From: a virus
Lineage: Duplodnaviria; Caudoviricetes
Virus record (IMG/VR): IMGVR_UViG_3300002855_000208
Coordinates: 1-53,655 of that record
Length of the DNA stretch: 53,655 nucleotides
Strand: one strand, 5' to 3'
The notes beneath the pieces are model-generated. The model was not told where the DNA came from. It made no database searches and saw only the letters and a list, made by a program, of their open reading frames with translations. Below are positions 1-51,232 of the stretch, one piece after another. The stretch's first letter is position 1. Each line of letters begins with the position of its first letter. A program made the position numbers and the translations under genes.

Positions 1-1476
1 TTATCTAAAAGACACCTCTACCCGCGCCGGGAAGAAGGCGTTTTTCACTCCTTTAACATTCACTTCATCTGTAATAAGAGTTATCTTTTCAAATATTGTA
101 CTAACAGTCTGCTGTTTGTCCAAATCATCAAGGTCATCCCACAGATCAATTAATTGCAATAATTGCTCATTAGTCTGCGTACTTGTTCCAGCCATTGCAT
201 CCAATTTAGAAAGTATATCTTGCTCCGCTAAATACTCTTCATCCATCCTCATTCGTAGATCGGTTTCGTTAATCAAATCTTCGGCAAATGCATATTGCCA
301 TTTCTTTATTCTCGCTCTCACCTTTTCTAGATCGCGTTTCAGCTTCGCTGATTCTTTTTTCTTATCAGATTCTTTTCGTTCAATCTCAGTATGATGTTCT
401 TTCAATTGTTCAATTTCAGCCCGAATGCTTTGGATGTATTCCTTTATTAAATGTTCAACATGCACCTGACGAAACATGGGTTGATTGCAACTCTTGTTTT
501 CTTTTCGTTTGGAGCACCAGTAATAAGTTCCGCGCAATTCTGTTCCGTCTTTTCTGCTTCTCTTCGTTGTTAATCTTCCATACATCGCGGATCCGCAGCG
601 ACCACACCGCAATACGCCGTTAAACCAATATATTGCTTTGCGTGAGTATCCACCATCTGTACGGCGCCGCATTCGAAGAATATGTTCCTGAAACTCTTCT
701 TTCGTCCAGATCGCTTCATGGGTTCCTGTGACCTCAATTACATCTACTCGTTCTTCTCTTTTGCGTTGAGGGTATTTACCGTTTGCCATTTTGGAACCAA
801 ACCTAATAATGCCGGCATAAAACGGATTTTCTAGCGTCATTGCAACGTTTGTTGCGGTCCATTCGCCATCTCTGCGGACCTTGCCTTCTTTGTACATGTG
901 TGCAGCCACGGCCTGATAACTCATTCCGGACATGTAGAGCGTTCTAACTAAACGAATAAATTCTGCTTCATCCTCTATCAAGATTCCGTCGGAGTCATAA
1001 CCGTAAGGAAATTTTCCGCCCGGTCGTTTTCCCTCTTTCACCTTCTGTTCCATTCCAAGACGTACGCGTTCTGCAATGAGTTCACGTTCAAATTGAGCGA
1101 ACACGCCCAAGATACCAATCATTGCTCGGCCCATAGCTGTTGTAGTATCAAATTTCTCTTGCTTGGAAATGAACCCGACACTATATGACTGAAGGTATTC
1201 GAGTAACTCGTATAGATCTTTAACGGATCGAGTGAAGCGATCAAGTTTATATACCAGAACAGCATCTATTTCTTTATTACTTGCGGCTGTTAATATTTCC
1301 TGCAAACGAGGCCGTTTTGTATTCTTTGCAGAGAAGCCATCATCAATACAAATCTTAACTATTTCATAGTCGTTAACCCGGCAGTAATCAACCAATTGAT
1401 TCTTTTGAGCTCGGATTGAATAACCTTCATTGGCTTGTTCATCAGTACTTACTCGAATATACAAAGCGACGCGCAT
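1..1476 (-). CDS. Large serine recombinase (phage integrase)
   Basis: YIRVST catalytic Ser motif, DRFTR, recombinase domain, CGRCG...C...C zinc ribbon and coiled coil. Confidence 0.95.
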   Translation of the reverse strand: MRVALYIRVSTDEQANEGYSIRAQKNQLVDYCRVNDYEIVKICIDDGFSAKNTKRPRLQEILTAASNKEIDAVLVYKLDRFTRSVKDLYELLEYLQSYSVGFISKQEKFDTTTAMGRAMIGILGVFAQFERELIAERVRLGMEQKVKEGKRPGGKFPYGYDSDGILIEDEAEFIRLVRTLYMSGMSYQAVAAHMYKEGKVRRDGEWTATNVAMTLENPFYAGIIRFGSKMANGKYPQRKREERVDVIEVTGTHEAIWTKEEFQEHILRMRRRTDGGYSRKAIYWFNGVLRCGRCGSAMYGRLTTKRSRKDGTELRGTYYWCSKRKENKSCNQPMFRQVHVEHLIKEYIQSIRAEIEQLKEHHTEIERKESDKKKESAKLKRDLEKVRARIKKWQYAFAEDLINETDLRMRMDEEYLAEQDILSKLDAMAGTSTQTNEQLLQLIDLWDDLDDLDKQQTVSTIFEKITLITDEVNVKGVKNAFFPARVEVSFR

Positions 1477-17966: not shown

Positions 17967-18176
17967 ATGGCTGATTTCTACAAAAATAAACACGTATCCC
18001 AAACTCGCAAGGATCACAATTGCTATGATTGCGGTCACGTCATTCCAACAGGTTCAGAAGCCGCCAAATCATGTACGGTACTGGAAGGGCAATTTCTCCA
18101 CGGATATTTCTGTTATTCATGCGTACCGGACAAGCATCCATCCCTATTAGGGGAGAAGGGAGAGGGGCAGGGGTGA
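17967..18176 (+). CDS. Zn-finger protein
   Basis: RKDHNCYDCG...CYSC. Confidence 0.65.
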   Translation: MADFYKNKHVSQTRKDHNCYDCGHVIPTGSEAAKSCTVLEGQFLHGYFCYSCVPDKHPSLLGEKGEGQG

Positions 18177-18973
18177 TACGGAGTCCGCTCATTTGGTTCG
18201 GAGGAAAGAGTAGGGTAGCAACACACATCATTTCAAAAATGCCTCCTCATACGTGCTACGTTGAACCATTTGGGGGGGCGGCGCATGTGATTGCACAGAA
18301 ATCCCCGGTATACAGCGAAGTATATAACGACATAGACGGGGAAGTCGTAAACTTCCTGCTTGTGGCCAGAAGCGAACCAGTTAGATTCAAAGAGGCTTGC
18401 GAGTCTCTGCCATATAGCCGGGCGATCTATGAAAAGTGGAAGAGAGAAGCGCCGCTGGAAGATAACTTCGAAAAGGCCGTTAGATTCTTCTATGTGAATC
18501 GGTCAGGGATCACAAAGGGAAATTCAGATTCGGTATTTTCCACGGACACGGGCTGGAGGCACAGCAAGGAACACAATACAGCGCGAACGTATCAATCGGC
18601 TTGTGAGGTCATTACAGGGTTTGCGGAAAGAATGAAGACGGTCATGATCGACAATCGAGACTTCCGGGAGATATTCAGGGTTTACGACTCACCAGGAACT
18701 TTGTTCTACGTTGATCCTCCATACATCGGCAGAGAAAAGTATTACGCCGGGGGATTCACTGATAAGGATCATCGCGATTTAGCGGAAATCCTGAATAAGA
18801 TTCAAGGAAAAGCAATCCTATCATATTACGATGATCCCCTGTTGAGCGAACTGTACCCGAACTGGCATCGCGAAACGTATCAAGTGGCGCGGCAAGTGGT
18901 CAACGGGAACAACAACAAGGCAGAAGAACTTCTGCTCATGAACTTCGATAACGGACAGATGACGCTTTTCTGA
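18173..18973 (+). CDS. Orphan DNA adenine methyltransferase (Dam/D12 class)
   Basis: WFGGK, YVEPFGG, ND, YVDPPY motifs; GTG start at 18173. Confidence 0.92.
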   Translation: MIRSPLIWFGGKSRVATHIISKMPPHTCYVEPFGGAAHVIAQKSPVYSEVYNDIDGEVVNFLLVARSEPVRFKEACESLPYSRAIYEKWKREAPLEDNFEKAVRFFYVNRSGITKGNSDSVFSTDTGWRHSKEHNTARTYQSACEVITGFAERMKTVMIDNRDFREIFRVYDSPGTLFYVDPPYIGREKYYAGGFTDKDHRDLAEILNKIQGKAILSYYDDPLLSELYPNWHRETYQVARQVVNGNNNKAEELLLMNFDNGQMTLF

Positions 18974-19197: not shown

Positions 19198-19386
19198 ATG
19201 ATCATAGACGTAAAACCAGAACACATTGTCGGAAAGACTATTGTCGAGGCATTAATTACCGGCAATTCCATTGAACTGAAGTTTACTGATGGAACAGAGG
19301 CTGTCTTTAATCTGACGCAATTCGGGTACGATGGCGCTAGAATCGACAGTTCGTTTTGGCCTGTTCAACCCGAAGGAGGCCAATAG
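19198..19386 (+). CDS. Hypothetical protein
   Basis: AAGGAGG RBS. Confidence 0.6.
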   Translation: MIIDVKPEHIVGKTIVEALITGNSIELKFTDGTEAVFNLTQFGYDGARIDSSFWPVQPEGGQ

Positions 19387-19388
19387 AT

Positions 19389-19763
19389 ATGATCAACGAT
19401 AAGCCGGGACGGGATTTAGATTCGAAGATAGCGTTTAAGGTGTTCGGATATCCCGAACCATATGAGTCACCTTTCAACGGAGAATGGTGCATTAAGTTTC
19501 CTGAGGCGTGGAAAAAGGTTATACGTCTACCCCAATACTCCACCACATGGAACGGAATGCAATTAGTGGTGGAAGAGATGCAGCGGAGGGGATATTCGTA
19601 CAGATGTGGTTCGTATGAAACGGTAAGTAGTACGTGGAAACACTGGGCTAATTTTGAGGATGAATTGAAAGAATGCAATACGGTTGTGTCCGACACACTT
19701 CCCCATGCCGTCTGTAAGGCCGCACTAAAAGCCCTGGAGGATGATAATAGTGCTGACACGTGA
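19389..19763 (+). CDS. Phage ABA-sandwich domain protein
   Basis: PGRDLD...YST...LVVE...AVCKAAL. Confidence 0.75.
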   Translation: MINDKPGRDLDSKIAFKVFGYPEPYESPFNGEWCIKFPEAWKKVIRLPQYSTTWNGMQLVVEEMQRRGYSYRCGSYETVSSTWKHWANFEDELKECNTVVSDTLPHAVCKAALKALEDDNSADT

Positions 19764-20124
19764 ATCTATATTGGCAATGGAGCCCGGGAGAGAGTTGGAC
19801 GCGTTGGTTGCTGAGAAAGTGATGGATATTCCAATAATCTGGCGTGGCCCCTACGTCGCTGGAGGACCGCTAGGACTTGGGACACCGCATAAGTATTCCA
19901 CCGACATGTCCGCAGCGTGGGAAGTGGTGGAAAAGTTCGATAAGAACACATTCAATCTAAACTGGCTTGATGGATCAAATATTTACGGAATAGGTTGGCA
20001 TTGCAAACTTGGCAACGAACACGCACATAAATGTAGTACACCAACTGAAGCCATCTGCAAAGCAGCTCTATTAACCACTCTGGAGGATGATAGGGGAGAA
20101 AAAGAAAAAGCCCCGAAGGGCTAA
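19741..20124 (+). CDS. Phage ABA-sandwich domain protein (paralog)
   Basis: PGRELDALVAEKV...YSTDMSAAWEVVEK...AICKAAL. Confidence 0.8.
   Translation: MIIVLTRESILAMEPGRELDALVAEKVMDIPIIWRGPYVAGGPLGLGTPHKYSTDMSAAWEVVEKFDKNTFNLNWLDGSNIYGIGWHCKLGNEHAHKCSTPTEAICKAALLTTLEDDRGEKEKAPKG
20101..20123 (-). terminator. Intrinsic terminator of the moron
   Basis: Minus strand AGCCC-TTCG-GGGCT followed by TTTTCTTT. Confidence 0.7.
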
Positions 20125-20588
20125 TCATCTAAGTATGGTTGATGATACTTTTCTTCACCGGCCTTTCGAGCAGCGATCGCATCATCCTTGTTAGTGTACG
20201 AACCAAGCGAAATACTTTTTCCTTGAAAACCGATGTATGCTTTCCATCGTTGTTTACTTTCTTGCCACATAACACCTTTGTGACCGCTCTTGTTAGCCTT
20301 GTGAATCTTTGCCTTAAGCGCTGTCTTCCTGGTTCCGTCAACACGGTCGGAACTTATATGTGCCCTTACTCCGCGATCACGTTTGGAATTACGCTTACAA
20401 CCGCAACTCTTATAGGTTCCAGCGCGGAGTGATCCTCCAGGAACATATATTATTTTATCGCATGAACAAATGCATTCCCAAAGCAAAGTATTGTGTTCGT
20501 TGCGATGATCCGAAAGCTTGATGACCTTCAATTCATCAAATTGTTGTCCAGTAAGGTCGATACGACGAGAGTCAACACGCTTAACCAT
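20121..20588 (-). CDS. AP2-domain DNA-binding protein
   Basis: DLTGQQF, WECICSC, SCGC, NKSGHKGV...WKAYI...LG...AIAARK. Confidence 0.85.
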   Translation of the reverse strand: MVKRVDSRRIDLTGQQFDELKVIKLSDHRNEHNTLLWECICSCDKIIYVPGGSLRAGTYKSCGCKRNSKRDRGVRAHISSDRVDGTRKTALKAKIHKANKSGHKGVMWQESKQRWKAYIGFQGKSISLGSYTNKDDAIAARKAGEEKYHQPYLDD

Positions 20589-20757
20589 TATTTATCACCC
20601 AATACGGTTTTCCTAAATGATATCCACTAGGTTCAGGCACACGCCCCTCGTATGCGCGACCTTGTTGTTTGGCTCTCTCTTGAGCTTTAAGTGCTTGACT
20701 AATGTGCGCCCGGCTTACTCCAAGTTGTGAAGCAAGCTGGGCAGCGTTGAGGGGCAA
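20581..20757 (-). CDS. 58-aa HTH protein (Aca-like), not in ORF track
   Basis: TTG start; LNAAQLASQLGVSRAHISQAL; overlaps AP2 start. Confidence 0.7.
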   Translation of the reverse strand: MPLNAAQLASQLGVSRAHISQALKAQERAKQQGRAYEGRVPEPSGYHLGKPYWVINNG

Positions 20758-20759
20758 AA

Positions 20760-20930
20760 TTACTTTTCCGAGTAGTCCATGCGGAAGTCGTTGTAGTCAA
20801 TATCGTCGAAGCCATTTTCAGATACAAACTCTTCTTCGTTAAAACCGATAAGTTCGAGTGCTTCGCCGATCGTTAAACTTCTGTTTGTAACGACTTCGCC
20901 AACTAGAATATCGTCATAGTACACTTGCAT
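20760..20930 (-). CDS. 56-aa highly acidic protein, anti-defence candidate
   Basis: AAAGGAG RBS before MQVYY; 15 D/E versus 3 K/R. Confidence 0.7.
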   Translation of the reverse strand: MQVYYDDILVGEVVTNRSLTIGEALELIGFNEEEFVSENGFDDIDYNDFRMDYSEK

Positions 20931-20987
20931 TTGGATCGTCTCCTTTGTGACCGTCGCCATGTTGCGACCGCATCAACCTTATGACTT

Positions 20988-21019
20988 AATAATACACCAT
21001 GTATTAACAAATGTTAATA
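20988..21019 (-). promoter_or_regulatory. Moron promoter with palindromic operators
   Basis: TTAACA-17 bp-TATTAT; inverted repeats TATTAACA-aa-TGTTAATA (21002-21019) and AATACA-cca-TGTATT (20991-21005). Confidence 0.7.
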
Positions 21020-21053
21020 GGACTATAGAACTATATTTGGAGGATGATAGGGA

Positions 21054-21218
21054 ATGAGAGAGATCGATCTAAACAAACGTCTTATCGCTCAAGAAAAAGG
21101 CGGAGAACCCATAGAGATAGACGGTTACAAGCTTATTGAACCGGATGGAGTAATGATCTATATGGGACAACGAACATTAATCCTTCCGAAATCAGACGTT
21201 AAGATCACCCAACAATAG
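21054..21218 (+). CDS. 54-aa protein, not in ORF track
   Basis: GGAGG RBS; MREIDLNKRLIAQEKGGEPIEIDGY... Confidence 0.55.
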   Translation: MREIDLNKRLIAQEKGGEPIEIDGYKLIEPDGVMIYMGQRTLILPKSDVKITQQ

Positions 21219-21258
21219 CAAAAACCCCCGATCCTGAGCTGGGGAGCCGGTCGGGGGT

Positions 21259-21272
21259 AGAACGTAAGTTCC
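21259..21272. promoter_or_regulatory. LexA box upstream of late regulator
   Basis: AGAACGTAAGTTCC. Confidence 0.7.
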
Positions 21273-21309
21273 TACACACCAATTATATCATAAAAGGGCG
21301 TGGGGGAGC

Positions 21310-21690
21310 GTGGGTACATTGCAATTAGAACTTTATCCGAGTGCAACAGAGGCAGATAAGAAAATTGCAAAAGCGCTGCTTAAAAAGTATAGAAAGAATA
21401 AGAAAATCGTTGCAGAGTTTGAACGCAAAGGAACGGGCGGGCTTGCTAAAGACCAACTAAAGATATACAATACGGCAAAGAAGCAAGCCGAGTCCGTGGA
21501 AAGTGCCGTTAGATTGATACTCGATCCGGAGATCCGCGAGATGGTCGAGCACAAGTACATCAATGGCGAGCTACGCCGGCACAAAGACACGTTAATCAGA
21601 TTCAGCACTTGGGACCAGTCAACGGTTGGTCGAAAGCTCAATGAAGGCATCGAGTCTGTTGCGGAAAGTCTTATACTTTTTAACTACTAA
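21310..21690 (+). CDS. ArpU/RinA-like late transcriptional regulator
   Basis: Size, position before late genes, sigma region 4-like C-terminus (REMVEHKYI...STVGRKLNEGIESVAE). Confidence 0.7.
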   Translation: MGTLQLELYPSATEADKKIAKALLKKYRKNKKIVAEFERKGTGGLAKDQLKIYNTAKKQAESVESAVRLILDPEIREMVEHKYINGELRRHKDTLIRFSTWDQSTVGRKLNEGIESVAESLILFNY

Positions 21691-21695
21691 AACTT

Positions 21696-21721
21696 GCACA
21701 TAATTAGCACGTTTACGGCAC
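21696..21721 (+). promoter_or_regulatory. Phased activator boxes of putative late promoter
   Basis: GCAC at 21696, 21707, 21718, exact 11-bp period. Confidence 0.55.
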
Positions 21722-21750
21722 ACGATAAGAGAATAAACCACACGTTATAT

Positions 21751-22153
21751 AGGGATACAGTAGAGTCAAATAGGGCAGACGCCCGGGCGACTCCGCTGTA
21801 TCCCTTATTACTTTGCGGACCCGGCCATGCGGTGGGAGAGTGTGCGGTCTCTCCTTAGGCGCCACCGATAAGGTGATCAGTCGCCGAGCGTGTGGAGATG
21901 GGAATGGGGTTCGAAGCCCCAAGTTTATCTTTTCTTCTCTGCGCCGGATCCATCCGTATTGGAGAAGAGGTGATAATCCTCTAAAATAAACCCCTCGACC
22001 GGCACGGTATGTATAGTGACGCATCATATCGGCGGGAGGTGGTCTATGAATGGAAGTCGAAGCGGTGAGCCTGCCGCAGAGAGCGGAAGCACATATTATA
22101 GGCAGCGGCTACAAACCGCAAAGCAGGATGGCTTAACGGCCATCCTTATTTTT
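21751..22153 (+). ncRNA. Candidate large structured non-coding RNA or late leader
   Basis: Many nested stems, no convincing ORF, ends in an intrinsic terminator. Confidence 0.5.
22125..22153 (+). terminator. Intrinsic terminator
   Basis: AGGATGGC-TTAACG-GCCATCCT followed by TATTTTT. Confidence 0.7.
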
Positions 22154-23310: not shown

Positions 23311-23880
23311 GTGGTGGTAATGAAGTTCGTTCAACCGATCAGAGACCCGAGAAAGGTCGAGGCGATCAAGGATTTTCTATTAATGCGTAATGAGAGAGAT
23401 TTCGTGATGTTCGTCCTCGGGATTAATACCGGGCTTCGTATTTCAGATATCCTTCCTCTTCGCGTGATTGATGTTAAAGGGATATACATTGATATTTACG
23501 AAGAAAAGACAGGAAAGCATCAGCTCATTAAAATTAATACAGTTCTTCGTAAGGTTCTTGACGCTTATATCAAAGGGAAGTCCGATTATGAATATTTATT
23601 CAAGAGTCGGAATAAGAAGCACAAAACTGGAAAAATCAACGAACCAATCAGTTCGAGCATGGCATATAAGATTCTAAGCGGAGCTGCAAAACACTTCGGC
23701 TTAACGAGTATCGGGACGCATTCCATGAGGAAAACGTTCGGGTACTTTTTTCATATGAGGGAGAAGGACATAACGTTACTAATGGACCACTTCAACCACG
23801 ATGAAGAATCGATCACATTACGCTATATCGGCATTAAACAAGACACCTTAGACGAGGCGATTGACCGTCATGGACTATGA
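23311..23880 (+). CDS. Catalytic-domain-only tyrosine recombinase
   Basis: GLRISD, EKTGK, HSMRKT, NH, LRYIG. Confidence 0.92.
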   Translation: MVVMKFVQPIRDPRKVEAIKDFLLMRNERDFVMFVLGINTGLRISDILPLRVIDVKGIYIDIYEEKTGKHQLIKINTVLRKVLDAYIKGKSDYEYLFKSRNKKHKTGKINEPISSSMAYKILSGAAKHFGLTSIGTHSMRKTFGYFFHMREKDITLLMDHFNHDEESITLRYIGIKQDTLDEAIDRHGL

Positions 23881-46448: not shown

Positions 46449-46805
46449 ATGCAAGCATATATCGATCAAATCGTGCAGGCCCTCGTTGGCCTGCTTGTTG
46501 TTTTTGTCTTGGGAGTTGTCGCTTCCCTGAGGGTGAAGGTCAATGTGTGGCTATCGTCCAAGACGAGCGCACAGCAGCGCGAAATCCTCCATAGGATCGC
46601 CGCTGAAGGGTTTGCGCTCGTAGAGGTCACATACAAACAGATGGACGGTCCGGCGAAGTTAAACAAGGCACTTAAATACGTGAGTGATCGCGCCATATCG
46701 TACGGGCTTGATTTTTCCATTGATACGATCCGGGCCGTAGTTGAAAAGGCAGTTCTCGAGTACAACGCCAAGGTAAAAGGGAGTGGCAAGGAGCTGGGTG
46801 AATGA
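46449..46805 (+). CDS. Holin (LL-H-like)
   Basis: AGGAGG RBS; N-terminal TM; GPAKLNKA...VEKAV. Confidence 0.8.
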   Translation: MQAYIDQIVQALVGLLVVFVLGVVASLRVKVNVWLSSKTSAQQREILHRIAAEGFALVEVTYKQMDGPAKLNKALKYVSDRAISYGLDFSIDTIRAVVEKAVLEYNAKVKGSGKELGE

Positions 46806-48385
46806 TTAAGCATACTCGCGTCCGAGTTAAAGATAAGAAGTTAGAGGAAGGGCCGCTACAATATAGCGGCTCTTTTTCAAAGTCCAACGGATGGACAGAC
46901 ATCAGGGTCTTGGATATTCCGCCCGTAGCCGTTATAAAAACCGAATTAGTAATTTCCAAGGGCAAATCAGCTTCATCCATTCTTGCCGATCTAGTAGCCA
47001 AGTACGGCGGAAACTGGGTTGTGTTTAATGCGTCGTATTTTAGCTCATCCGGTGACTTGATGGGAAAAACTTTTCAAAACGGCAAGGTCATATTCCAAGA
47101 CGTGGCAGGAAAGACAGAGCAGCGCCCTCATTTGTATCGAAAGGCTGGACGTTTCGGTGTTGGACGTCAAGGCGACCCTGCGGGGATCGATTGGGCTGTC
47201 GTAGGTGTTCCGACGCTAACGGCCGGAGGAAAGGCAATCAATCCACCAAGAGCAGAAGAAAAGACACCGCCAGACGTGCCGGGCGTTAACCCTCGCATGA
47301 TCGCCGGAATCAAAGCAGACGGAACGCTTGGCATTATTGCGGTGGATGGTCGAGGAAGCTCGGATCGGGGATTAACAACCGAGGAATCCGGTATTATGGC
47401 GATCTCTCTCGGTTATGCCGATTCGATAAATCTGGACGGTGGAGGATCCTCGACGATCGCCACAAATAATCGCCAGTTGCTCGATGCTCTCGAGATCGAC
47501 AAGACCAATAAAAAGCGCAATTATCATGTTAGCGACATAAGCCAAAATCAAGTTCAACGTATTATTCAACATGCCGTTGCGATTCAATTCGATCCGGCCG
47601 TTCTATTCCCTAAGCCGAATACGCTATTCGGGATTGATTGTGCCAACCCACTCAAAACGGTCACGGCAAAGGCGGTAGCTGCCGAAGGCGCTAAGTTTGC
47701 CGTTCGCTATTTGGTGCCGCCAGCTTATGCATGGAAGCGCCTCACGCGCCCGGAAGTCGACGCCATTCAAGGCGCCGGAATGAAGGTGGCTTCGGTCTTC
47801 CAAAAAGGCACTGATCGTGTAACGGGTGGAAAAAGTGCCGGTCAAGTGGATGGCCGGGAGGCTTTCGCCGAGGCAAAACTTATTAATCAGCCGCTCGGCA
47901 GCGCGATCTTCTTCGCAGTGGACTATGATGCACATCCGAAGGATTATGACGCTATAGAGGCTTACCTTCGCGCAGCTCAAGCGGAGATCCTGGGATATCA
48001 TGCCGGCGTATACGGTCATTATGCTGTAATCGAGGAAATGGCTAAACGTGAGGCATGCAAATACTTCTGGCAGACTTATGCTTGGTCTGGCGGCAAGAAG
48101 AGCGACAAGGCGCACTTGTACCAATACAAAAATGATACTAAACTCGGCGGTGTCTCCGTGGATTTCAACGAGGCTTACACTGAAGAGATTTTCTGGAATG
48201 AAAAGAAGGTGGAGCCGGTGGAGAAGTCAGCGAATAATGACGTAACCGCTATTGTATTTGGAAAGAAGATCGAAGGAGCAATCGTTATTGACGGCGTTAC
48301 GCTGCTACCTTTACGAGCTGTAGGGAATGCGATCGGCGGCAAGGTTACATGGGATCAGAAAACCATGACTGCAACAATCGAGTAA
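46802..48385 (+). CDS. Endolysin: phosphodiester glycosidase (NAGPA-like), DUF1906/GH25-like and C-terminal surface domain
   Basis: FNASYF, NPR, VDGR, NLDGGGSS; FAVRYL, FFAVDYD, GVYG, WQTYAWS; LPLRAVG...VTWD. Confidence 0.8.
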   Translation: MIKHTRVRVKDKKLEEGPLQYSGSFSKSNGWTDIRVLDIPPVAVIKTELVISKGKSASSILADLVAKYGGNWVVFNASYFSSSGDLMGKTFQNGKVIFQDVAGKTEQRPHLYRKAGRFGVGRQGDPAGIDWAVVGVPTLTAGGKAINPPRAEEKTPPDVPGVNPRMIAGIKADGTLGIIAVDGRGSSDRGLTTEESGIMAISLGYADSINLDGGGSSTIATNNRQLLDALEIDKTNKKRNYHVSDISQNQVQRIIQHAVAIQFDPAVLFPKPNTLFGIDCANPLKTVTAKAVAAEGAKFAVRYLVPPAYAWKRLTRPEVDAIQGAGMKVASVFQKGTDRVTGGKSAGQVDGREAFAEAKLINQPLGSAIFFAVDYDAHPKDYDAIEAYLRAAQAEILGYHAGVYGHYAVIEEMAKREACKYFWQTYAWSGGKKSDKAHLYQYKNDTKLGGVSVDFNEAYTEEIFWNEKKVEPVEKSANNDVTAIVFGKKIEGAIVIDGVTLLPLRAVGNAIGGKVTWDQKTMTATIE

Positions 48386-48482: not shown

Positions 48483-49163
48483 ATGGAGATGATAATTGTG
48501 GAAGATATCTCGTTTGCTGAAAAAGCCTTTAAGAATGACTTTCCAAATGATAGCCTCGTTCATCTGAAGACTGCTGTCAATCATGGTTACATACTTGCTA
48601 ACAAATGCATCGCTGACAATGACTTCTTGAAATCCGCTATAGGTAAAAGAGATTGGGCTAGGCTTCAGAATACTGCCGTGGAATTCGCCATTAAAGATAG
48701 GGCGGAACGGATGAATATTGAATTAAGAATTGAAGAAGCTAATAACATCCGAGGGAGTTTCCCACATTACAACTTCTTTTTGGGAAACTGTGTCTTCACG
48801 ACGAGCCGCACGGAATATTATGATGCGTTTCCAAGAGATGCAATGTTCCGGAGCATGAATAGTGCCTTAAATTCTCAAATTAAAATGATTCAAAACAGCG
48901 GAATCCTCGAAGTTGGAGTTGAGCAAGAAAATACCGAAAGATATTACGGGATTCTAACTTACGGCGGGCGCTATGATATTGAATTTATTCATTTTGGAAT
49001 TCCAAATAGCGAAATTAATAATTGGTTATATCAATGCAATATTGCAAAGTCAATTGTTTTAGCCGATCGTACTCTCGCAGAAAGAGAGAATATTGCGGCT
49101 TCCACTGTTGCAGCTGTTAAAGATCAGTTTTTAAAACGTCAGGAAGTGGCTAACGGTGAGTAA
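48483..49163 (+). CDS. Putative toxin/effector (RmrT-like position)
   Basis: AT-rich; overlaps downstream HTH-peptidase gene. Confidence 0.55.
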   Translation: MEMIIVEDISFAEKAFKNDFPNDSLVHLKTAVNHGYILANKCIADNDFLKSAIGKRDWARLQNTAVEFAIKDRAERMNIELRIEEANNIRGSFPHYNFFLGNCVFTTSRTEYYDAFPRDAMFRSMNSALNSQIKMIQNSGILEVGVEQENTERYYGILTYGGRYDIEFIHFGIPNSEINNWLYQCNIAKSIVLADRTLAERENIAASTVAAVKDQFLKRQEVANGE

Positions 49164-50340
49164 AATTGAAGAATTTAAAGGAAGTAAAAAGGGAACTAAC
49201 CACAAGAACGCTTTTATTCCGGAGAGACTTCGACAGGTAAGAATAGCGCTTGGCTATTCGACCATAGACTTTTCAGAAGACATTGGTGTTACGCGTCAAG
49301 CTCTAAATCAGTTCGAAACCAACAGAATAACTCCAAGTTACGAAACGCTCTTAAAGATAGAAAAAACGACTAATTTCCCAGTAGATTATTTTTTCAAACC
49401 AATCTTGCCCGTAAATGATGGACCATTCTTGTTTAGGGCGAATCGCACTTCTTTAAAGAAAACAAAAGAGTTTTCGAGGTTTATTGTCCAGCAAATGAAG
49501 GAAAGTTACGATTTCTTTTCTGAATATCTTGACTTTACTCCTGTGAACGTGCCTTTACTTGAGTTTGATGTGAATAGTTCGCTTGATGAAATTGAGGATA
49601 TCGCAGTGGCTTTACGGAAGCACTGGGGTCTAGGATTAGGTCCAATAAGTCATGTATACAGGCTTCTTGAGAATAATGGGATTATTATTTCCCAACTTGA
49701 CAAGCGTTTGGATAAAATAGATGCATTTTCACAGTGGAAAGATGGTAGACCGTTTGTCTTGGTTGGTTCACAAGAATTTACTGCATGTCGTCTGAGGCTT
49801 AATGCAATGCATGAATTTGGACACATACTGCTTCATACTGATGCTGAATACGAAGAAAGAGCAAATAAAGATGCCGAATTTTACGATGTTCTTGAAAGTC
49901 AGGCATTCCGTTTAGCCGGAGCCTTCATGTTTCCAAGAGAGTCTTTTCTTGACGAATTGTTTTCGACGTCGCTGCCCCATCTGATTGAGCTTAAACAACG
50001 ATGGGGAGTGTCCTTGGCATTTATAGTTAGACGTTGCAAGGAGCTCGAGATCATTTCTGATTCTAAGTACGAGACCTTAATGAGGCAAATAAAAAAGTTT
50101 GGGAAAATGGAACCCTTGGACGACAAAATTGAGAAGGAGCAACCGCGCGCATTGAATCAAGCTGCAAATCTATTGATGGAACACGGTGTTAAAACTCGTC
50201 AAGAAATATTAAGCGGCCATAAGCTTCCTCGGACGCTCGCTGAATCAATAATCGGTGTCGAACCAGGATTTTTTTCGGAGCATATCCCAGAAGAAAAAAT
50301 TGTTGAATTCCGATCAAAATCGCAAAATAAAGCTAATTGA
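49156..50340 (+). CDS. XRE-HTH fused to ImmA/IrrE Zn metallopeptidase (RmrA-like)
   Basis: HTH; LRKHWGLG; DAFS; HEFGH; E..A..LAGAF. Confidence 0.88.
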   Translation: MSKIEEFKGSKKGTNHKNAFIPERLRQVRIALGYSTIDFSEDIGVTRQALNQFETNRITPSYETLLKIEKTTNFPVDYFFKPILPVNDGPFLFRANRTSLKKTKEFSRFIVQQMKESYDFFSEYLDFTPVNVPLLEFDVNSSLDEIEDIAVALRKHWGLGLGPISHVYRLLENNGIIISQLDKRLDKIDAFSQWKDGRPFVLVGSQEFTACRLRLNAMHEFGHILLHTDAEYEERANKDAEFYDVLESQAFRLAGAFMFPRESFLDELFSTSLPHLIELKQRWGVSLAFIVRRCKELEIISDSKYETLMRQIKKFGKMEPLDDKIEKEQPRALNQAANLLMEHGVKTRQEILSGHKLPRTLAESIIGVEPGFFSEHIPEEKIVEFRSKSQNKAN

Positions 50341-50370
50341 AAGCGGAAGGCGTAAGCCTCCGCTTTTTTT
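50341..50370. terminator. Terminator between convergent genes
   Basis: AAGCGGAAGGC-GTAA-GCCTCCGCTT followed by T run. Confidence 0.75.
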
Positions 50371-51232
50371 ATACAATGAAGCCTACAAACTCTGGACTCC
50401 GCAGCATCCCCTTACGCGTCCAATTCCGGAACCGCACCCGCGCGTTTATCCTCGGCTCTAAATAAACGAAATCCCGATCTTCTCTAGAAACTAGGCTACG
50501 AGCGACGCCATAGAACGCCTGCTTATGTTTCAACGGAACCAATGTCGGATGTTCGAGAAGTCCGACCGGTCGACCCCGATGAGACAGCAGCCATCCAAAT
50601 TGATTTTTCCGGTATCCGGCAATTTGCACGACATCATAAGTGTAGTTAATAATTTTGATCCAGCTTGGGGCGCGACGACCGACATACCGACTCTTTTGTA
50701 GCTTGGCTACAATTCCCTCGAGTTTCTTTTCCTTGATCGCTTCGAACAATGCCACGCCAGTTCCAGGAACACTCAACACCGGGGAGAAGAATTTATTTGC
50801 CGATAGAACTTGCTGCAGGATCCGCTTGCGCTCCGTTAGCGGTAGAGGCCGCAAGTCACGTCCATTGTACCGCAGGATATCAAACACATAGTAATGGACC
50901 GGCTGCCGAACCATAGCTTGGCGTATAGCGAGCGGTTTCCGCTTCAAAAATCGCTCCATGACCAATTCAAACTCAATGGCCCCATCTTCATTTTGGCATG
51001 CGACTTCGCCGTCAAGCACAACGTCGGAACTGTCATCGATCGGAACGTCATGCAGCTCGGGATACTGCAGCGTCACGTCGTTATTGTGGCGTGTAAAAAG
51101 ACGGACCTGTCCGGCCTCCATCGATAAGATGAGGCGGTGTCCGTCTATTTTGGGTTCAAATATATACCGATCGTCATCGAAAGGATTCTCACGCTTTTCC
51201 AGGAGCATAGGAGGGAGGAACATTTCGCACAC
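50369..51232 (-). CDS. ATP-dependent DNA ligase (LigD ligase-domain type)
   Basis: EPKIDG, LDGE, FDIL, EGIVAK, WIKI, G.LR.P.F. Confidence 0.92.
   Translation of the reverse strand: MCEMFLPPMLLEKRENPFDDDRYIFEPKIDGHRLILSMEAGQVRLFTRHNNDVTLQYPELHDVPIDDSSDVVLDGEVACQNEDGAIEFELVMERFLKRKPLAIRQAMVRQPVHYYVFDILRYNGRDLRPLPLTERKRILQQVLSANKFFSPVLSVPGTGVALFEAIKEKKLEGIVAKLQKSRYVGRRAPSWIKIINYTYDVVQIAGYRKNQFGWLLSHRGRPVGLLEHPTLVPLKHKQAFYGVARSLVSREDRDFVYLEPRINARVRFRNWTRKGMLRSPEFVGFIV

Follow-up and report, generated by a model that had tools for sequence, protein, structure and literature searches.

Whether a short antisense cassette shields a prophage from the CRISPR immunity of its host, and which of its genes would do so, is the question raised by positions 20081 to 21052 of IMG/VR record IMGVR_UViG_3300002855_000208. 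The window analysed here is the whole of this complete provirus record (53,655 bp). An initial annotation had described the cassette as a moron with the architecture of anti-CRISPR (Acr) and anti-CRISPR-associated (Aca) genes. Our analysis favours an anti-CRISPR locus, with a probability of about 0.55 that at least one of two proteins, a small acidic protein (acid56) or a 155-amino-acid (aa) protein with a CapR and an AP2 domain, inhibits CRISPR-Cas. The moron and the acr/aca-like architecture were borne out. The emphasis on the acidic protein was not, since the AP2 protein is no mere bystander and holds the strongest anti-CRISPR link. The parts of the cassette are listed below; HTH stands for helix-turn-helix.

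20081..20095 (plus): left 15-bp repeat, encoding LEDDR near the 3′ end of the Phage_ABA_S gene 19741..20124
20122-20109 (minus): intrinsic terminator, AGCCCTTCGGGGCT and a T-run that reaches into the left repeat
20121..20588 (minus): CapR+AP2 DNA-binding protein, 155 aa, CasPR-family homologue
20581..20757 (minus): HTH58, winged HTH protein, 58 aa, TTG start, candidate Aca-like autorepressor
20760..20930 (minus): acid56, acidic protein, 56 aa, preceded by AAAGGAG
20952-20967 (minus): leader hairpin GTCGC-AACATG-GCGAC
20991-21005: inverted repeat AATACA-tgg-TGTATT, over the spacer and the −10 element's edge
21017-20989 (minus): sigma-70-type promoter TTAACA-17-TATTAT, 10/12 consensus positions
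21002-21019: inverted repeat TATTAACA-tt-TGTTAATA with perfect 8-nt arms, over the −35 element
21038..21052 (plus): right 15-bp repeat, containing the Shine-Dalgarno sequence GGAGG of orf54 and closing a relic frame that ends ...LEDDRE*

Since it unites a relative of DNA-binding anti-CRISPR proteins with a rare regulator and an acidic protein of a conserved family, the cassette probably protects its prophage against host CRISPR immunity.

The 155-aa CapR and AP2 protein

The annotated AP2-domain protein is present, at 20121-20588. Its CapR cysteines (positions 39, 41, 43, 62 and 64) are invariant in 12/12 homologues from related cassettes. Pfam detects the AP2 domain with an E-value of 0.0024 (18.6 bits, under the 33.3-bit cut-off), a profile of the protein family matched the AP2 region of plant WRI1 (E 1.9e-5), and the PHROG matches cover the AP2 residues 92-151.

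Proteins of this build were described in 2026 as CasPRs, only for type I-B and type II-A systems in Listeria and Streptococcus. According to the available text of that report, CasPRs are phage proteins that combine a zinc-finger-like CapR domain (C33, C35, C37, C56, C58) with an AP2 domain, bind within the coding sequence of cas8b or cas9, and thereby silence transcription. They work in lysogeny and not in lytic infection, and mostly adjoin conventional acr genes. CasPRIB1/AcrIB14, CasPRIB2/AcrIB12 and CasPRIIA1 are the members given, and the authors propose that further specificities exist (bioRxiv 10.64898/2026.02.23.707548).

The criterion stated there for a CasPR is a BLASTP match to CasPRIB1 with E <= 1e-4 and >= 70% coverage (bioRxiv 10.64898/2026.02.23.707548). 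We compared the 155-aa protein with gp22 of Listeria phage A006 and with the multispecies Listeria AP2 protein P0107 as proxies for CasPRIB1; both have the same residue numbering, with cysteines and arginines at the exact positions quoted for CasPRIB1, and the E-values are pairwise. Gp22 aligned from end to end (BLASTP 4e-33, 37% identity), and P0107 gave 3e-33 over 94% of its length; identity to the Listeria AP2 proteins was 37-39%. Coverage was 95% for gp27 of phage phiCDHM13 (5e-11), the AP2 marker used for finding AcrIB2 (PMC10732046), and 91% for prophage proteins of S. dysgalactiae. AP2 genes are reported to be common in acr loci (PMC10732046). In A006 itself, the gene immediately before gp22 is gp23; its product matches PDB entry 5Y6A (E 1.6e-92), which is AcrIIA1 by the listing of PMC5758886.

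On the sequence evidence, the CapR+AP2 protein is the best-supported anti-CRISPR candidate of the cassette. Its homology and domain architecture suggest that the protein, made from the prophage, would bind a site inside a host cas gene and block transcription, which would lower Cas levels in the lysogen. The protein belongs to a distinct CapR+AP2 clade that we identified in prophages of Paenibacillus, Heyndrickxia, Weizmannia and relatives, and the CRISPR-bearing hosts of the related cassettes have type I-C systems.

The cassette in related prophages

The neighbourhoods of acid56 relatives comprise 25 loci (8 viral, 17 genomic), which are not all independent: identical cassette proteins occur in L027, L028, L036, L037 and L038, while L022/L023 form one set of near-duplicates and L024-L026 another. 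A CapR-containing gene was found within about 1 kb of acid56 in 21/25 loci, as CapR+AP2 in 19 and as CapR only in 2 (L034, L040). The usual order is a Gp111-like gene, CapR+AP2, a variable regulator of the HTH (HTH_17/HTH_59) or ribbon-helix-helix (RHH) type, promoter and acid56, with further small uncharacterised genes after acid56 at several loci. The order seen in the window, acid56 followed by the CapR gene, recurs in three loci (L034, L040, L045). Many of the related loci adjoin lysis genes on the opposite strand, which is also the position of the A006 acr locus. When ten neighbouring cassette genes were compared with Pfam, five matched only Gp111, HTH or DUF (domain of unknown function) families and five matched nothing. 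A further candidate locus, L047 from a metagenome-assembled genome of Gammaproteobacteria (23 aa at 52% identity), was spurious and was left out of the counts.

Host CRISPR-Cas systems and self-targeting spacers

Among the genomes of acid56-bearing species, 10/15 encode Cas1. In all ten of these Cas8c is the neighbouring large-subunit gene, so the hosts are type I-C (10/10). A CapR gene adjoins acid56 in 10/10 Cas1-positive and in 1/5 Cas1-negative genomes (Fisher p = 0.0037, from a small sample with kinship ignored). As a background we used an unbiased sample of 201 genomes from the family of one carrier. Type I-C systems were present in 74 of them, acid56 in 5 (4 with type I-C) and the CapR+AP2 clade in 11 (6 with type I-C, 7 with Cas1). 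Type I-C occurs in 11/16 acid56 carrier genomes versus 74/201 in this background (binomial p = 0.0096), a rate that comes from one family while the acid56 carriers span at least two.

We then compared 466 spacers, from 11 arrays in 12 cas1 regions, with all related loci. In Paenibacillus haidiansis (G004), 5/61 type I-C spacers match the strain's own cassette-bearing prophage perfectly (array L061 against L079/L080/L041), and in Weizmannia acidilactici (G002) 2/83 spacers are perfect matches to its own prophage, of which 8 kb were compared (array L058 against L033). All 7 self-targeting protospacers have a 5′-TTC flank, and TTC is the protospacer-adjacent motif (PAM) of type I-C (PMC7913775). 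In both strains the cas3-cas5c-cas8c-cas7-cas4-cas1-cas2 operon is complete and open. Self-targeting is a recognised mark of inactive CRISPR (PMC7913775), and the perfect matches, as read from the genome sequences, imply type I-C inhibition in G004 and G002. One of the G004 spacers lies inside the CapR+AP2 gene itself; the same spacer matches this gene in eight other loci with 3 mismatches over 27-33 of its 34 nt. For the window, no match beyond 17 nt was found among the 466 spacers. The two sequenced strains with perfect, PAM-flanked self-targeting of a cassette-bearing prophage provide a ready test bed.

Two of the carrier strains have a second CRISPR locus (L060 in G003, L062 in G004) with Cas3 and an unassigned 650-aa large subunit. 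The repeats of these loci are unlike the type I-C repeat (GTTTTATCTGAACGTAGTGGGATATAAAG-type), and their spacers gave no match to the prophages compared.

The acidic protein acid56

The annotated 56-aa protein with 15 acidic residues is present at 20760-20930; it has 15 D+E, 3 K+R and an isoelectric point (pI) of 4.05. The family alignment and the AAAGGAG box favour the start of this form over that of a 66-aa form. The acid56 family comprises 55 clusters of 50-97 aa with a median net charge of −10, hosted by Paenibacillus, Heyndrickxia, Weizmannia, Neobacillus and relatives, and all of its named members are called 'hypothetical'. Relatives are 57-80% identical to the window copy and share the near-invariant motif GFDDIDYNDF.

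The AlphaFold model (predicted local distance difference test, pLDDT, 87.4) consists of a beta-hairpin, two helices and a strand. The initial annotation had taken acid56 for a DNA-mimic inhibitor of CRISPR-Cas or restriction systems. Profile and structure searches lent this no support, as they returned no sequence or fold match to a known inhibitor, with no dedicated Acr library among the collections searched. The best Foldseek row for the fold was ArdA, with an E-value of 4 and a probability of 0.03, and the best VIA Z was 3.0 over 48,161 chains. Against the PDB the single sequence found no match and the profile gave 0 hits at E up to 10. There was no Pfam or PHROG family, no tblastn match in 50,697 phage records, and in the ESM Atlas there were only unnamed clusters (0.75-0.76). 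A literature search, in which papers cannot be searched by sequence, found none on the family. Complex prediction for acid56 and the AP2 protein gave 0.00 versus a mark of 0.32, which we take as evidence neither way.

Four lineages have an RHH domain joined in frame to the N-terminus of acid56 (P0009, P0030, L043:3394-3702, L045:1869-2192), which suggests that regulator and effector can merge. L042 has a separate 47-aa RHH gene upstream of acid56.

A precedent for a small acidic inhibitor is AcrIC5, a small, highly acidic inhibitor of type I-C with orthologues in several phyla, Firmicutes among them. It is predicted to occlude the PAM site of Cas8c, and one AcrIC5 homologue adjoins an AP2 gene, as described in the available parts of three reports (PMC7913775; bioRxiv 10.1101/2025.06.06.658234; PMC10732046). 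For the window, we regard acid56 as an uncharacterised, tightly linked co-passenger that could be a direct inhibitor, with type I-C as the obvious first target. Its association with the other genes would fit an inhibitor of the conventional protein kind, co-transcribed with them, the likeliest target being the type I-C effector, as type I-C is what the hosts of this family have; we consider it rather unlikely that acid56 inhibits a defence system directly. Should it prove active, it would add a new small inhibitor of type I-C, of interest for the control of Cas3-based genome editing.

A rare HTH protein and a promoter with palindromes

The initial annotation had noted an unlisted 58-aa HTH protein, which we place at 20581-20757. 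An exhaustive HMMER search found 7 homologues among 1.84 billion representatives, and HTH58 is therefore a real gene, though of a rare family. Two homologues of 56-57 aa are 63-72% identical with matching ends, and three longer proteins bear the same C-terminal domain. Searches of viral, genome and metagenome contigs located none of the relatives, also with the three closest sequences as query. A match in the L048 genome turned out to be a chance match inside an acetyltransferase-like open reading frame (ORF). The TTG start of HTH58 lies 5 nt past the stop of the acidic gene, with no clear Shine-Dalgarno sequence. Pfam gave weak HTH matches (best E 0.0016). The AlphaFold2 model (pLDDT 91.6) shows a helix-turn-helix and a beta-hairpin wing, and the top Foldseek rows against the PDB were winged-helix DNA binders (RacA, MerR-family, SmtB, BldC), none of them significant.

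The promoter overlapped by two inverted repeats was found as annotated. TTAACA-17-TATTAT is the best of 6 promoter-like sites in 19300-21700, and the repeats cover 20991-21019. The terminator, a hairpin with a T-run at 20122-20109, is likewise present and is the only terminator-like site in the same interval. The annotated leader hairpin exists as a motif at 20952-20967 but was rejected as a significant structure: the 61-nt leader folds no better than shuffled sequences (z = −1.12), 34/200 of which fold at least as well.

In acr-aca operons a strong promoter under inverted repeats precedes a small protein gene and a small HTH gene, and Aca11 controls the acrIIA3-AP2 operon through promoter inverted repeats (PMC12658196, available text). 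The acr/aca-like arrangement of the cassette, a small protein followed by an HTH protein behind a promoter with operator-like palindromes, was recovered. Like Acas, HTH58 is encoded by the very operon that it is predicted to control, and inverted repeats overlie that operon's promoter. From this position and anatomy, HTH58 would bind the two promoter palindromes and autorepress the operon as Acas do.

In most of the related loci, a sigma-70-type promoter close to consensus precedes acid56, and a palindrome overlaps the hexamers or lies between them. When compared by eye, this palindrome varies with the type of the neighbouring regulator:

L029, L041: HTH_59-like regulator, palindrome AAACCTT..AAGGTTT
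L027, L030: 81-aa HTH_17-like regulator, palindrome CCTATACA..TGTATAGG
L022, L024, L039: 98/105-aa HTH_17-like regulator, palindrome ACATGTA / ACATATAA-type
L042: RHH regulator, palindrome GTATATCATATGATATAC
Window: HTH58 regulator, own palindrome pair (20991-21019)

Such co-variation, as far as sequences can tell, would be expected of acid56 promoters that are bound by the small regulator encoded next to them.

Insertion of the cassette at a conserved gene junction

The genes next to the cassette are the following.

19356..19763 (plus): Phage_ABA_S gene, first of a tandem pair, at the end of the early region
19741..20124 (plus): Phage_ABA_S gene, second of the pair, left flank of the cassette (PF18066, E 1.4e-12)
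21054..21218 (plus): orf54, a 54-aa gene with its ATG at 21054, right flank of the cassette, just upstream of the late regulator
21310..21690 (plus): ArpU-like late regulator (PHROG 21810)

Identical 15-mers flanking the reverse-strand unit had been annotated, and this is exact. The 15-mer TGGAGGATGATAGGG has only two copies in the window (20081-20095 and 21038-21052), and two matches were obtained in 0/100 shuffles, even with <=2 mismatches. The repeat is not anonymous DNA, as on the plus strand it is coding (LEDDR) and ribosome-binding (GGAGG) sequence. The last 9 codons of the left flanking gene (GEKEKAPKG and the stop) are now supplied by the insert. The final residues of a relic frame, 20947..21057, are ...LEDDRE*, and the TGA of this frame shares bases with the orf54 ATG; an ancestral junction is therefore predicted in which the Phage_ABA_S gene ended ...LEDDRE* and overlapped the next start codon.

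The initial annotation had proposed a search for an empty site, and such a site exists. The related viral contig L051 has the uninterrupted junction with a single 15-mer (14/15 identical), and the cassette is thus read as an insertion. The L051 junction has the sequence ...CTGGAGTATGATAGGGATTGAAGAGAG; its Phage_ABA_S gene ends LEYDRD* (...PEAICKAALLTTLEYDRD*), and the stop overlaps (TTGA) the TTG start of a small gene, which is followed by the late regulator. Over 49 nt including the 15-mer, L051 is 96% identical to window positions 20047-20095, with 48/49 matches counted for its left side. The right junction of the window reads ...TGGAGGATGATAGGGAATGAGAGAG, and the bases after the 15-mer in L051 (ATTGAAGAGAG) resemble those at this right junction (AATGAGAGAG). 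With the empty site in L051 and the predicted promoter and terminator of its own, the annotated moron held up, and that the cassette is a true insertion is highly probable.

On the contig L013/L049, whose late regulator shows 93% identity, this junction is occupied by two different genes on the plus strand, which marks it as a recurrent cargo site (hot spot). In L013 a homologue of orf54 (56% identity) precedes the 93%-identical late regulator; no orf54 relatives were found by peptide pattern in viral contigs. The cargo genes there (L013:4405-5114) encode proteins of 142 aa (YopX-like by eye) and 107 aa. A third, weaker copy of the 15-mer (12/15) is located at 19735-19749, on the boundary between the two Phage_ABA_S paralogues, and the motif is therefore taken to be a natural gene-boundary sequence. 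Both paralogues (19356-20124) end ...LEDD, and the same pair is present in L051.

The insert has a G+C content of 43.4%, the flanks 46-47%, and no transposase, terminal inverted repeats or nuclease is present in it. At the cassette borders of the other loci the 15-mer is absent; matches with <=2 mismatches were limited to the L051 junctions and an unrelated site in L034. A blastn search of the phage collection with the DNA of 19300-21800 gave no match. We infer that a circular or looped DNA was integrated through short homology, leaving the motif on both sides. The recipient would have been a temperate phage of spore-forming Bacillota, in which the cassette was inserted antisense at the conserved junction between the Phage_ABA_S gene and the small gene before the late regulator. 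The pair of filled and empty sites with a duplicated 15-bp motif is a tidy example of cassette movement between phage genomes.

Other genes of the window

Elsewhere in the window the following genes were noted.

1..1476 (minus): serine recombinase, at the left end of the window
After the serine recombinase: Bro/KilAC antirepressor
18029..18973 (plus): D12-class N6-adenine DNA methyltransferase, at the close of the early region
46802..48385: endolysin-like gene

No partner nuclease was seen near the D12-class methyltransferase, which might counteract restriction as a second and independent means of counter-defence. Downstream of the ArpU-like late regulator are the packaging and structural genes. 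An epsC (EAR) RNA motif (RF01735) lies between the regulator and the packaging genes (21786-21920, plus strand; 48.7 bits versus a gathering score of 42, E 2.6e-6), in a stretch of about 750 bp with no long plus-strand ORF and with DNA-level conservation in L049 to L054. EAR is a processive antitermination element, and the motif may let transcription of the late operon pass terminators. Just upstream of the terminase genes, the 189-aa product of 23311-23880 (plus) contains a Phage_integrase (tyrosine recombinase) domain; L050 has this protein at 97% identity, L052 and L053 at 71-72%, and its size and position are unusual for a recombinase. Past the endolysin, 48483-50340 (plus) holds a 226-aa gene of unknown function and a 394-aa fusion of HTH_3 and peptidase M78 (ImmA/IrrE-like). 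An ATP-dependent DNA ligase at 50369-51232 (minus) is probably host DNA. In L024, the end that bears the cassette also adjoins a similar ligase, which may mark a shared integration neighbourhood.

Alternative explanations

Several observations weigh against an anti-CRISPR function of the cassette. Of the two arginines required in CasPRIB1, R138 and R149, whose conservation is stated for the Listeria homologues (bioRxiv 10.64898/2026.02.23.707548, available text), R149 corresponds to R141 of the 155-aa protein, which is nearly invariant among homologues, and R138 corresponds to a serine. According to the same text, AP2 genes from acr loci of Listeria and C. difficile had earlier shown no inhibition of type II-A or I-B, and in phage satellites CapR domains work as plain repressors too (bioRxiv 10.64898/2026.02.23.707548). 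No known acr homologue was found, with no dedicated Acr library, by Pfam and PHROG in the window cassette or by Pfam in ten neighbouring genes of related cassettes. HTH58 is of the MerR/Xis-like winged type, whereas the solved Acas are of a helical-bundle HTH type (PMC12658196, available text). With 57-80% identity over at least six genera, acid56 is unusually conserved for an Acr, and it occurs in 5/15 genomes without Cas1. Type I-C is not significantly enriched with CasPR-like genes (6/11 carriers versus 68/190 non-carriers, p = 0.22), and 4/11 of these carriers in the 201-genome sample are without Cas1. No self-targeting was seen in G003 (60 spacers against two copies of its prophage including 20 kb to either side) or in G008 (79 spacers), and the independent carrier G064 gave a single match of 31/35 nt with 4 PAM-proximal bases unaligned; for the remaining carriers the spacers were compared with 8 kb of prophage only. 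Finally, self-targeting marks that CRISPR is off and points to no particular gene.

Much of this would suit a moron that serves regulation or another purpose. The CapR+AP2 and HTH proteins would then be ordinary phage transcription factors aimed at competing phages, satellites or phage genes, the acidic protein would modulate some other process, and the link to CRISPR would be incidental. CapR domains were originally reported from satellites, where they repress phage genes, and the AP2 genes of acr loci were formerly taken for Aca-like regulators without Acr activity (bioRxiv 10.64898/2026.02.23.707548, available text); the Cas1-negative carriers of both genes and the conservation of acid56, far above that of typical Acrs, agree with this. 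Such a moron cannot readily account for the full-length homology of the AP2 protein to the Listeria acr-locus AP2 proteins with identical cysteine geometry, nor for seven perfect TTC-flanked self-targeting spacers against cassette-bearing prophages in strains with intact type I-C operons, and the related cassettes lie beside lysis genes on the opposite strand like the A006 acr locus. We consider such a regulatory or other-purpose role rather unlikely.

That acid56 itself is a DNA-mimic inhibitor of CRISPR-Cas or restriction enzymes, with the HTH protein as its Aca and the AP2 protein as an accessory, appears doubtful. Its strong acidity, shared by the family, its compact and confidently predicted model, its place as first gene behind an operator-bearing promoter in most loci, its fusion to or contact with RHH domains in four lineages and the AcrIC5 precedent all speak in its favour, as does the excess of type I-C among its carriers (11/16 versus 74/201). 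This excess is measured against one family while the carriers span at least two, and five carriers are without Cas1; acid56 is without similarity to any solved or catalogued inhibitor in the searches given above, and negative charge by itself makes no DNA mimic. Two further readings were rejected as very improbable, as the nuclease domain required by one and the toxin-like partner required by the other are both absent. The cassette could be the relic of a free-standing homing endonuclease gene, in which the AP2 protein is a decayed HNH-AP2 enzyme that drove the insertion. All 7 PHROG families matched by the 155-aa protein carry the label HNH endonuclease, and many phage records annotate homologues likewise, but these matches span only the CapR and AP2 segments of longer endonuclease profiles, Pfam finds AP2 and no HNH domain, the nuclease-free form of 150-165 aa is conserved end to end in many phages, and homing gives no flanking target duplication. 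A toxin-antitoxin or addiction module with the acidic protein as antitoxin would resemble the type II antitoxin layout of the RHH-acid56 fusions; the neighbours of acid56, however, are DNA-binding proteins, none is toxin-like, and acid56 often stands alone behind its promoter.

The anti-CRISPR reading that we prefer has a more specific form, in which the cassette is a portable, self-regulated inhibitor of type I-C in two layers, with acid56 as a new AcrIC family and the CapR+AP2 protein as the first type I-C CasPR. This form is tentative and rather improbable in full. Acid56 would block the DNA-binding site of Cas8c/Cascade, like AcrIC5 in function with an unrelated fold, while the CapR+AP2 protein would silence cas transcription in the lysogen. 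The palindromes and HTH58 would regulate the unit itself, and its passage from one phage genome to another would take place at conserved gene-junction motifs, by integration through short homology.

Comparison with known systems

Phage morons bring their own promoter and terminator and separate genes that are direct neighbours in related phages. The window cassette is like them in having its own promoter and terminator (by consensus scan), in lying antisense to the flanking operon, in its slightly lower G+C content, and in the uninterrupted junction of a relative; it is unlike them in the directly repeated 15-bp junction motif, both coding and ribosome-binding, at its flanks.

Acid56 is like AcrIC5 in being small, strongly acidic and, as in the case of one AcrIC5 homologue, located beside an AP2 gene, and unlike it in having no detectable sequence relation (0 hits with the PDB profile; none of the 55 clusters is so named). 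With its inverted-repeat promoter, small protein gene and HTH gene, the cassette resembles the acr-aca operons of Aca1, Aca2, Aca7, Aca10 and Aca11, and the order acid56-(HTH)-AP2 resembles the acrIIA3-AP2 operon under Aca11 (PMC12658196, available text).

The closest comparison is that of the 155-aa protein with the CasPRs. It differs from them in that no known acr gene adjoins it and in the serine at the R138 position. Its gene is at the early/late junction of the phage and not beside lysis genes, and the hosts of the related cassettes are of type I-C, a type for which the CasPRs described in the available text were not reported (bioRxiv 10.64898/2026.02.23.707548). Like the CasPRs, it is encoded by a prophage, among small genes of unknown function in an accessory cassette, is of similar length (155 versus 165-166 aa in the Listeria proteins), and combines one CapR domain, with the CxCxC...CxC cysteines at identical spacing, and one AP2 domain.

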